Shown piece by piece: positions 18,442 through 20,151 of a stretch of DNA of 64,000 bases; position 1 is the stretch's first letter, and each line of letters begins with the position of its first letter. A program made the translations under genes and the position numbers. Source of the DNA: a virus; the IMG/VR virus record IMGVR_UViG_3300044701_001468. One strand, 5' to 3'. The notes under the pieces are model-generated. The model was not told the DNA's origin. It searched no databases and saw only the letters and a list, made by a program, of their open reading frames with translations.

Positions 18442-20151
18442 TTACAGAGTTGTTTTATTTAGTACGGAGATATGAAGACCATTCCACCAACTGGATGAAT
18501 CTTCGTATTGTGTAGTGAGAAGTTGCTTCTCATATAAAATATTTATCTTTGAAAAATTTATGAAGTCTTTTACGGATTTTACTACTCCTTCGAAATTGGC
18601 ATCATCTATGACTAGTATAAAAGTATCTTCAAATAACGGCAATAAATGTTTTAAACATTTCATTTGATCAATATAATCATGACTACCATCATAAAATATT
18701 ATATTGGGTTTAACAAATGACAAGTCTATAGATTGTAAATCTTCTATTTTTTTATCTATTAACTTTCCGTTTATTTTATATTTTTTTATGTTATCTAATA
18801 AAGTATATTTTGGTTTTGAATAACCCGACCACTGAATATCTAATCTAGCGGGTGCTATTTCAGTTTGATAATTATCTATAGCAAATCCAATTGCATCGGT
18901 GTTCATAATTGCTGGTATAAATGTGCTTCCAGCATAAGAACCCAACTCTAAATATTTGGCATCTTTTATAGAACATAAGTTGTTTAAAAAATGTCTAACT
19001 CTATTTGAAGACAATCCTTCAATAGAAAAATTTTTGTCATCAAATTTAGAAATATTTTTTCCAGAGTTATCCAAAGAATTAATTACATGTTGTACATATG
19101 GATGTAATTGTTTGTCGTATTTTTTTACTCTAGATTCTATAACTGATTCACAATAATTACATTTCCAGCAATCAAATTTACAATTTTTTATTTTTTGCCG
19201 CCAAATATCTATTGGTTTATTTTCAATATGAATGTCGTGAATATATTCGTTAAAATTTTCAAATAACAACTCTTCGTTATTTGCCCATCTTTTTATGATA
19301 TTCATAGATTCATTCAATCTCATGGCAGATTCTCTGCCATGCATTTTAAAAACATCAATTCCCAGATCTATAAATTCTTCCCAATCTTTTTTCCATGGAG
19401 GAATATTGGCAGCCTTTAAAGATGCTGCGGGATCCAACACAGACCATTTAGCACAAGAAACTCTACTAATAGAATCTCCAAAATATTCTGGATTTTCTAC
19501 TTTTCTACTATTATTATAATGATAATGTTCTGGCATGATCGGACAACCACCCCAGCAATTTTCGTTCGATAGTAAAGATAATTTTACTGGTTTCCCTATA
19601 GATTCACAATATTCCTTTGCCTCTTTAATTGCGTTAAGTTGGTCACGATCTCGCATTAAATCTCTATCGAGATTAATGTAATGAAATCCTGCCTTTGCTA
19701 AAGATACAATTTCGTTTGGTCTGGTAACTTCGCGTAAAATAGTATTTTTAATATAAAGTTCTGGAAATTTTTCTTGTATTTGTCCAGTAAGTAACCATGT
19801 AGTGTGTGGAATAGTTGCTATTCTTACGCCAGCATTATATAATGGTTCAAAATTTGTTATGAATAGATCTAAATTTTCTTGATCTGGTCGAACAAAAATA
19901 TTATTAAATGTTGCAGATAAAGGTATTCCAGTCTGTTTTGAAATATAAAGAGAATTGAATGTTGTTTGTTTTTGATCTGCAAAAATATCTCCCATAGCAT
20001 CTTGCTCAAATGGAGGCATTCTGCATGTGAAATATAAATCAAAAATATATTTTTTGTGTTCTATTAAAAATGGTATTAATGTATTTTCTACAAAATCTTT
20101 AGGAAGCTTTGGATTTAGTGGAAGACTGAAGACCTTTTGGTAATGATCCAT
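18442..20151 (-). CDS. Peptidase-U32-like (Fe-S hydroxylase family) domain fused to a class I SAM methyltransferase
   Basis: N-terminal: NENCWGGC...C, VFKMHGRE (like U32 KIEGR), CWKCNYC. C-terminal: YLELGSYAGST, IIFYDGSH, ILVIDD. Confidence 0.65.
   Translation of the reverse strand: MDHYQKVFSLPLNPKLPKDFVENTLIPFLIEHKKYIFDLYFTCRMPPFEQDAMGDIFADQKQTTFNSLYISKQTGIPLSATFNNIFVRPDQENLDLFITNFEPLYNAGVRIATIPHTTWLLTGQIQEKFPELYIKNTILREVTRPNEIVSLAKAGFHYINLDRDLMRDRDQLNAIKEAKEYCESIGKPVKLSLLSNENCWGGCPIMPEHYHYNNSRKVENPEYFGDSISRVSCAKWSVLDPAASLKAANIPPWKKDWEEFIDLGIDVFKMHGRESAMRLNESMNIIKRWANNEELLFENFNEYIHDIHIENKPIDIWRQKIKNCKFDCWKCNYCESVIESRVKKYDKQLHPYVQHVINSLDNSGKNISKFDDKNFSIEGLSSNRVRHFLNNLCSIKDAKYLELGSYAGSTFIPAIMNTDAIGFAIDNYQTEIAPARLDIQWSGYSKPKYTLLDNIKKYKINGKLIDKKIEDLQSIDLSFVKPNIIFYDGSHDYIDQMKCLKHLLPLFEDTFILVIDDANFEGVVKSVKDFINFSKINILYEKQLLTTQYEDSSSWWNGLHISVLNKTTL

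Follow-up and report, generated by a model that had tools for sequence, protein, structure and literature searches.

The 64,000-nucleotide stretch of viral DNA analysed here (IMG/VR virus record IMGVR_UViG_3300044701_001468; hereafter the window) carries, on its minus strand at 18442-20151, a gene for a protein of 569 amino acids (aa) that is predicted to combine a divergent barrel of the U32 superfamily with an S-adenosylmethionine (SAM)-dependent O-methyltransferase. By analogy with known U32 pathways, the probable role of this enzyme is to methoxylate a target. We give a probability of roughly one half to the whole reading, in which one bifunctional chain would carry out the methoxylation in two successive steps on a target linked to the tail fibre; that both domains are correctly assigned appears highly likely. 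The protein (P0001) belongs to phrog_1458 and to the cluster T4-GC 354, which was given solely as a hypothetical protein by Sullivan et al. (2010). Rather than a new kind of enzyme, it represents a subfamily that is new and invisible to Pfam, within a known superfamily; its fusion and its setting are new as well.

A conserved two-domain protein

The first-pass annotation had placed the gene at 18442-20151. These coordinates do hold a single open reading frame (ORF) of 569 aa, starting from ATG, but on the minus strand; the plus strand is full of stops across the interval and offers no open reading. Every motif quoted in that annotation was found in the minus-strand translation: NCWGGC (residues 198-203), followed by C233, KMHGR (269-273) and CWKCNYC (328-334) in the N-terminal half, and LELGSYAGS (401-409), FYDGSH (486-491) and VIDD (514-517) in the C-terminal half. 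CWKCNYC is part of a longer arrangement, C324-x3-C328-x2-C331-x2-C334. The domain sizes proposed at that stage also fit the boundaries found here, with a barrel and Cys knuckle at residues ~1-345, linker helices at ~346-365 and a methyltransferase fold at ~366-568.

The gene is real and conserved far beyond chance, since the protein matches phrog_1458 (unknown function) at E 3e-225, has 1906 cluster representatives at E <= 1e-3 among the candidates scored in a collection of 5.8 billion proteins, and belongs to a family that keeps seven Cys down to 22-28% identity. Residues 1-340 alone match phrog_36869. The full-length AlphaFold model had a predicted local distance difference test score (pLDDT) of 91.4. 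When this model was searched with Foldseek, pyruvate kinases dominated the matches; this was an artefact of the combination of a barrel with an alpha/beta domain, and was disregarded.

Relationship of the N-terminal domain to the U32 superfamily

The N-terminal domain (residues 1-345; 19117-20151, minus strand) was characterized by modelling, structure searches and profile alignment. Its AlphaFold model, built from the family alignment (pLDDT 93.1; predicted template modelling score, pTM, 0.92), displayed the strand/helix alternation of a (beta/alpha)8-type barrel, followed by helices bearing the last four Cys. In a Foldseek search of the PDB, the first-ranked structure was the U32 peptidase Mk0906 (5d88), the only solved U32 domain, with E 3e-7, TMt 0.69 and a root-mean-square deviation (rmsd) of 4.3 A, versus a TMt of ~0.5 and an rmsd >8 A for ordinary triosephosphate isomerase (TIM) barrels. 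VIA-align, whose ranking is independent of Foldseek, likewise placed 5d88_A first among 48,161 representative chains (Z 16.7, rmsd 3.2 A, 227 of 247 residues); the next-best chain, at Z 12.4, was 4.3 Z units lower and belonged to the generic TIM-barrel background. The first-pass annotation had made its proposal depend on a match to the U32 barrel fold, and this fold came out on top with both programs.

Homology was also detected between profiles. The U32 profile consisted of four E. coli paralogues (TrhP, RlhA, UbiU and UbiV) and four Chloroflexota U32 proteins. Against it, the family alignment reached an hhalign probability of 95.6% in local mode (E 1.2e-8) and of 94.7% in global mode, over 305 columns. 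With bridging sequences excluded, the probability was 88.6% (E 2.6e-6), and the reversed-profile control gave E 0.4-0.9. The same alignment scored below 1% against a single UbiU or UbiV sequence and 39% (E 3e-4) against a four-sequence U32 alignment, so that deeper profiles are needed to detect the relationship.

Along the barrel, the characteristic U32 motifs ('DxxY', 'FPE(M/L)' and 'K-x-x-G-R') were in register with the phage protein: D38-x-Y40 was aligned with D-A-V-Y, FPEL with FPEM, and K269-M-H-G272-R273 (19333-19347, minus strand) with the KIEGR strand motif of TrhP, RlhA and UbiU. Moreover, C199 and C233 fell on Cys1 and Cys3 of the U32 cluster motif. K269, G272 and R273 are invariant, or almost so, in the family alignments.

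A link to canonical members was provided by a Chloroflexota genome (G009), in which five paralogues of 350-390 aa matched the family hidden Markov model (HMM) at E 1e-30 to 1e-36 and also scored 22.0-30.3 bits against PF01136, three of the five being above the 22.4-bit cut-off. The ESM-Atlas neighbours of the domain include a viral cluster with PF01136 on 20% of its members, and a relative in BFVD is named 'Peptidase' (Escherichia phage OLB35; E 9e-11). Sequence searches of the PDB with the single protein and with several family profiles gave nothing real for this domain, and a six-frame search of the genome of phage P-SSM4, which carries an orthologue, gave no PF01136 match.

Because of the 5d88 fold match, the profile-profile homology, the bridging G009 paralogues and the in-register KxxGR motif, we assign the domain, as judged from sequence and model, to a divergent branch of the U32 superfamily that lies beyond the reach of the Pfam model. 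The U32-like character claimed earlier is thus borne out by fold, profile homology and bridging paralogues, but not by a direct PF01136 match or by the canonical Cys motif.

Conserved cysteines of the N-terminal domain

TrhP (YegQ), RlhA (YdcP), UbiU and UbiV of E. coli are PF01136 Fe-S proteins required for O2-independent, prephenate-dependent hydroxylation (PMC6747719, PMC6599085, PMC10990095). The Cys spacing CX6CX15CX3/4C is common to eight of the ten U32 subfamilies; it varies in UbiU (CX6CX16CX38C) and UbiV (CXnCX12CX3C), each of which binds a [4Fe-4S] cluster (Pelosi et al., PMC6747719).

At the position of the U32 cluster motif, the phage protein exhibits a Cys triad, C199-x3-C203-x29-C233 (19453-19557, minus strand), accompanied by E197, P204 and H209. 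These residues are candidate Fe-S ligands, and the region is kept in 45 of the 46 family sequences. The canonical spacing is replaced by CX3CX29C: C203 lies four residues past C199, versus seven in U32 proteins, and the fourth Cys is absent, the family having 'C-x-x-W-R' where U32 proteins have 'C-x-x-x-C-R-W'. Unlike known U32 proteins, the family possesses an additional knuckle, C324-x3-C328-x2-C331-x2-C334 (19150-19182, minus strand), ~90 residues downstream of the triad. All four of its Cys were present in 46 of 46 sequences, and their columns were invariant in three family alignments. This knuckle is a candidate second metal or Fe-S site, or could donate the fourth ligand.

Overall, the seven Cys were kept in 45-46 of the 46 aligned members. 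The invariant or near-invariant residues of the domain comprise D38, G108, P130, E197, C199, C203, P204, H209, C233, K269, G272, R273, C324, C328, C331 and C334. This pattern suggests either a cluster completed by a knuckle Cys beside a three-Cys site, or a three-Cys cluster with an open iron next to a separate four-Cys site.

The C-terminal domain resembles cation-dependent O-methyltransferases

The C-terminal domain (residues 366-569; 18445-19056, minus strand) was assigned to the class I, cation-dependent type of SAM O-methyltransferases (Methyltransf_24-like). With residues 361-568, VIA-align gave the same score, Z 16.7, to TomG (5n5d), the S. avermitilis COMT (8c9s) and B. subtilis TrmR (5zw3), followed by the Leptospira O-methyltransferase 2hnk and MeT1 (6g80; both Z 16.4), MycF (Z 15.8) and many COMT entries (Z 15-16). 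TrmR in its two structures (5zw3, and the tRNA complex 5zw4) scored Z 16.0-16.7 and, at 16%, had the highest identity of the tied matches. Since it ties with COMT, TomG, MeT1 and others, TrmR is not singled out among O-methyltransferases by the structural comparison. Most of the best 50 matches were cation-dependent O-methyltransferases; the exceptions were 5d88, which matches the N-terminal barrel, and a few other class I methyltransferases (precorrin-6y methyltransferase 3e05, TYW2 3a27/3a25, 3vse and 2as0).

The fold of the domain is of the class I Rossmann type found in TrmR (YrrM), COMT, CCoAOMT, TomG, SafC, MeT1 and MycF, with ~170-185 residues aligned at Z 15.8-16.7; it also has motif I (ExGxxxG), an acidic residue after beta-2, and Asp...His and Asp-Asp-x-Asn elements. 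It differs from them in being only 11-16% identical, in forming part of a larger protein and in scoring below the Methyltransf_24 cut-off: PF13578 matched the protein at E 9e-4 with 18.2-20.5 bits, versus a cut-off of 26.3, and is therefore sub-threshold here. The same family is precomputed on most close homologues. Sequence searches of the PDB matched no solved chain to this domain.

Among the 123 full-length homologues, E402, G404, G408, S409 and T410 of motif I were at least 95% conserved, as were D426, D488, H491, D516, D517, N519 and W555-W556-N557-G558. D488-x-x-H491 and D516-D517-x-N519 would occupy the positions of the metal ligands and the base of COMT. As its SAM and metal motifs are so strongly conserved, the methyltransferase appears to be under selection as an enzyme, and the domain looks like an active O-methyltransferase. 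The SAM methyltransferase read from the motifs in the first-pass annotation is thus upheld, with a Rossmann fold closest to the cation-dependent O-methyltransferases.

The gene belongs to a fibre-tip module

The gene had been described as part of a virion operon. It does lie between giant fibre ORFs and the neck genes gp13, gp14 and gp15, in a T4-like structural block encoded entirely on the minus strand, which includes gp16/17, gp18, gp20, gp22, gp23 and a baseplate wedge. Its products include the major head protein, scaffold, portal, sheath, and large and small terminases, besides gp15, gp14 and gp13; next are a 65-aa ORF and the enzyme gene, then two genes of ~250 aa, and finally several giant ORFs (1333-3241 aa) together with genes for the baseplate wedge.

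The first of the two ~250-aa genes (20099-20878, minus strand) encodes a helical protein of 259 aa from no known family, assigned to T4-GC 353 / phrog_1409 (hereafter GC353) and 38% identical to PSSM4_034. The second (20897-21652, minus strand) encodes a fast-evolving helical protein of 251 aa, T4-GC 352 / phrog_1604, which is 24% identical to PSSM4_033 (E 3e-13). Next to it, the C-terminal ~320 aa of a 3215-aa fibre ORF (21656-31303) form a fibre-tip domain of the T4-GC 351 type (21656-22627, minus strand), 34% identical to PSSM4_032 (E 4e-36). Tips of this type are named 'sericin 1 precursor-like' in GenBank records. The tip domain had no Pfam or PDB match, and no recognisable family was found for GC353 in Pfam or PDB searches. 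A ParB/RepB-like assignment of GC353, which came from ESM-Atlas (score 0.86, low feature count), was dropped for want of Pfam or PDB backing.

In tblastn searches, the enzyme, GC353 and the tip domain were each found in 123 cyanophage records, with an identical split between the labels Synechococcus (77), Cyanophage (38) and Prochlorococcus (8); co-occurrence was judged by these equal counts and label splits, not by accession-by-accession lists. GC352 was detectable in 26 phage records. The head protein found several hundred cyanophage records, which makes the module an accessory one, present in a minority of cyanophages. The gene order GC351-352-353-354 recurs in P-SSM4, P-HM2 and S-RIM12, at differing genome positions.

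The last 53 nt of GC353 overlap the start of the enzyme gene (20099-20151) in a different frame. In P-HM2 an overlap of 47 nt is annotated (L033, 6995-7041), and both protein ends are conserved. The arrangement suggests dual coding with probable translational coupling; no obvious slippery heptamer was seen at the overlap. A complex of the enzyme, GC353, two 4Fe-4S clusters and SAM was predicted with an interface score (ipSAE) of 0.00, which counts neither for nor against binding. The G+C content of the module (window positions 18000-22000) was 30-32%, versus 35-41% in the flanking structural genes, which fits an exchangeable cassette.

In an aquatic metagenome (X5), two contigs joined positions ~18026/18044 straight to ~21525/21463. 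The 3.4-3.5 kb skipped correspond to the 65-aa ORF, the enzyme gene, GC353 and most of GC352, and the matching sides are just 21-26 nt long. These joins may represent relatives without the module, or chance joins.

Orthologues and distant relatives

A tblastn search with the enzyme identified 126 phage records, of which 123 are cyanomyoviruses aligned over 98-99% of the length at 49-56% identity; all 123 orthologues are annotated 'hypothetical protein'. They include PSSM4_035 of P-SSM4 (52% identical), PHM2_101 of P-HM2, and proteins of S-RIM2, S-RIM12, Syn33 and S-CAM4. The window thus shares with cultured carriers of T4-GC 354 the protein itself and the order of the module, but differs from them in that its 3215-aa fibre ORF carries the tip domain as a fused end, the module abuts gp13 and the phage is a freshwater one. 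No paper giving a function for T4-GC 354, PSSM4_035 or PHM2_101 was found in a literature search. The earlier statement that no phage example has been characterised agrees with this search, which found none for a phage U32-like enzyme.

The remaining three records, from RP12-type jumbo phages of Ralstonia, carry the N-terminal domain alone. In phage RP12 (L002, 5983-8056), the gene for this domain (ORF139) is followed, with an 8-nt overlap, by that of a DUF401/CitMHS-like membrane transporter (ORF138).

An exhaustive HMMER search retrieved 282 representatives, many of them stand-alone proteins of 330-450 aa. In two unrelated types of phage contig, stand-alone distant homologues follow tail-fibre or spike genes. 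One genome contig was matched in a single-protein scan, at 73% identity; it probably derives from a phage and was assigned to an archaeal metagenome-assembled genome (MAG) by binning. Other domain arrangements were also observed: a U32-like domain is fused to DUF7483 (E 1e-51), with no methyltransferase, in one protein (P0124), and is C-terminal in another of 579 aa (P0136), behind a 230-aa extension of no known family.

A branch of ~400 aa was found in strict anaerobes (Dehalogenimonas, Desulfobulbaceae), hosts that would fit an O2-independent Fe-S enzyme. In Dehalogenimonas formicexedens, whose genome gave no canonical PF01136 match, the homologue directly follows a Methyltransf_2 O-methyltransferase gene (E 2e-17) among reductive dehalogenase genes. 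This pairing with an unrelated O-methyltransferase supports a logic of hydroxylation followed by O-methylation independently of the fusion. Another Dehalogenimonas has two copies, each behind an rdhA-rdhB pair. The homologue (L010, 9001-10212; L036, 6001-7209; L037, 6001-7224) may represent a so far undescribed accessory gene in rdh operons. Other cellular homologues adjoin B12-binding radical-SAM genes. In a Desulfobulbaceae MAG, two copies of 416 aa lie in a polysaccharide-synthesis locus (L011, 9001-10251 and 14292-15542), which also holds glycosyltransferases, two methyltransferases, a sulfotransferase, a flippase and many TPR proteins. In the Chloroflexota genome G009 (1.5 Mb), at least three of the five paralogues (L022, L029, L030, L031 and L032) adjoin a conserved protein of ~380 aa that belongs to no Pfam family and has N-termini such as 'MPNKWCDRYEELKDF'.

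Proposed reaction and alternative readings

We propose that the N-terminal domain would bind one or two Fe-S clusters and, independently of O2, hydroxylate an aromatic or heteroaromatic ring at an sp2 carbon, prephenate being the likely oxygen donor by analogy with U32 proteins. The C-terminal domain would then methylate the new hydroxyl, for a net product that is a methoxy group. The first-pass annotation had likewise suggested hydroxylation and then O-methylation by a single chain, with RNA, a fibre protein or a glycan as possible substrates. The hydroxyl introduced is subsequently O-methylated in two of the three known U32 pathways, and the same two-step logic, as in the conversion of tRNA U34 to 5-hydroxyuridine (ho5U) and 5-methoxyuridine (mo5U) by TrhP and TrmR, or in ubiquinone synthesis by UbiU/V and UbiG, may here be carried on one chain. 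Unlike TrhP and RlhA, the phage protein lacks their C-terminal domains and is fused to a methyltransferase; unlike other U32 proteins, it is encoded by phages of oxygenic phototrophs, within a fibre module.

Because the enzyme is co-inherited and adjacent with GC353 and the GC351-type tip, and because stand-alone homologues lie behind fibre genes, the target would be tied to the fibre tip. The likeliest candidates would be the tip protein, or a ligand or partner for its maturation, in preference to bulk tRNA or DNA. In the most specific form of this proposal, the enzyme would methoxylate the tip itself, through O2-independent hydroxylation and O-methylation of aromatic side chains, such as Tyr to 3-methoxy-Tyr through an intermediate resembling 3,4-dihydroxyphenylalanine; this form we regard as unlikely.

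Several observations speak against a methoxylating enzyme with a fibre-linked target. The N-terminal domain had no PF01136 match even at E <= 10, Pfam recognised no family in 41 of its relatives (E <= 0.01) or in ten further distant ones (E <= 10), and NCBIfam gave nothing usable at E <= 1; moreover, the canonical CX6CX15CX3/4C motif is not kept. The first-pass annotation took it as established that U32 proteins are hydroxylases; this must be qualified, because up to 2024 no U32 protein had been shown directly to hydroxylate a substrate in vitro (PMC10990095). Proteins, moreover, are not among the known U32 substrates, which comprise RNA bases and a quinone ring. Many homologues lack a methyltransferase domain, so that methylation is not intrinsic to the family. 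As for the fibre link, the co-occurrence comes from the equal counts described above, cyanophage fibre regions are hypervariable islands that also gather unrelated accessory genes, and the homologue on a 58-kb phage contig (L006, 8001-10526) adjoins genes for a haem oxygenase and a ferredoxin-dependent bilin reductase. On this contig, the homologue lies between a tail-spike block and the bilin genes and is preceded by a 62-aa ORF with a weak DUF6171 match.

The same chemistry might instead act on nucleic acid, pyrimidine C5 being hydroxylated and then O-methylated in tRNA (U34 to ho5U to mo5U, TrhP and TrmR being united in one chain), in rRNA or in phage DNA (5-methoxypyrimidine), with the fibre neighbourhood reflecting just a hypervariable island of accessory genes. 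Two of the three characterised U32 systems do act on RNA pyrimidine C5 (PMC6599085, PMC10990095), TrmR is one of several structures that share the best score for the C-terminal domain, and some homologues are named 'predicted O-methyltransferase YrrM' by the Joint Genome Institute. Moreover, the next gene in P-SSM4 and Syn33 is denV, followed by early-type small genes, and the genes bordering the homologue on the 58-kb contig are metabolic. However, O-methyltransferases for catechols, sugars and antibiotics match as well as TrmR does, the phage protein does not have the C-terminal extensions seen in TrhP and RlhA, there is no tRNA gene in the window, and the ParB-like lead for GC353 is unsupported. 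Strict co-occurrence with one tip type and GC353 is also not predicted by a general role in translation or DNA protection. A nucleic-acid substrate is therefore conceivable, if on the doubtful side.

Two further readings change the chemistry itself. In ThiC, a C-terminal Cys motif provides the [4Fe-4S] cluster of a TIM barrel, and the N-terminal domain could be a non-canonical radical-SAM-like enzyme working in this manner, with C324-x3-C328-x2-C331 binding a SAM-cleaving cluster and the fused Rossmann domain supplying or using SAM. The knuckle indeed holds the exact CX3CX2C spacing, cellular homologues adjoin B12-binding radical-SAM genes as noted above, and faint NCBIfam matches to arginine 2,3-aminomutase (0.03), SPASM (0.036) and EpmB (0.064) were obtained, but each of these in one of the 41 members and at E > 0.01. 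Neither the protein nor the 41 members matched Radical_SAM (PF04055) at any threshold, the best structure and profile matches are to U32 and not to radical-SAM barrels, the third Cys is not preceded by the usual aromatic residue, and CX3CX2C (324-331) sits after the barrel, at the C-terminus, and not after strand 1; we consider this reading very unlikely. It is still harder to credit, and in our view extremely improbable, that the U32-like domain is a peptidase or collagenase-like enzyme processing the co-inherited fibre or chaperones, with an accessory or inactive methyltransferase. The annotation of 5d88 as a 'U32 peptidase', the name of the OLB35 relative and the position among fibre genes are all in keeping with such a role, but characterised U32 members are tied to hydroxylation and Fe-S clusters, not to proteolysis (PMC6747719, PMC10990095), the seven invariant Cys point to metal clusters, and the SAM and metal motifs of the methyltransferase are at least 95% conserved.

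By its assignment to a U32-type barrel joined to an O-methyltransferase, a gene that ranks among the abundant 'hypothetical' ones of aquatic T4-like cyanophages gains a concrete and testable chemical hypothesis, namely that it installs a methoxy group. A function is known for only a minority of U32 subfamilies, and the family is extended here to a branch found across phages and strict anaerobes. Co-inheritance with one tip type hints at an Fe-S-based modification of the adsorption apparatus or of its needs, which would be new phage biology if true. Methoxylation of the tip itself would give the U32 family a protein substrate and would represent a new virion modification, tuning adsorption or fibre stability; were tRNA or DNA the target, the enzyme would provide a new phage-encoded base modification.

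Source phage, transcription signals and expression

Among isolates, Synechococcus phage Sf-FR1 has the closest head protein, at 69% identity, and the window sequence was found in freshwater, not marine, metagenomes of at least eight studies, as well as in one wastewater run and one freshwater metatranscriptome. On the basis of the head-protein identity and the freshwater metagenomes, the window is attributed to an uncultured freshwater relative of the cyanomyoviruses. A 6.8-kb contig from an independent study spans 18006-23000 at ~99% identity.

Between gp13 and the enzyme gene, the 65-aa ORF (18230-18427, minus strand) matches phrog_580. It is followed by a terminator-like hairpin (18180-18208, minus strand) with an 11-bp stem, including 5 GC pairs, and a TTTTT run, which could mark the end of the fibre/enzyme transcription unit. 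The nearest upstream T4-type late-promoter word, TATAAATA (36006-36013, minus strand), is a consensus match only; it constitutes weak evidence, because the word is not commoner in the window than expected by chance (6 matches versus 8 expected).

Contigs from the freshwater metatranscriptome were aligned with 18227-18753 and 18826-19311. They hint weakly at expression, given that RNA libraries may contain DNA, and the gap in RNA-library cover at ~19400-20000, within the gene, is evidence of nothing.

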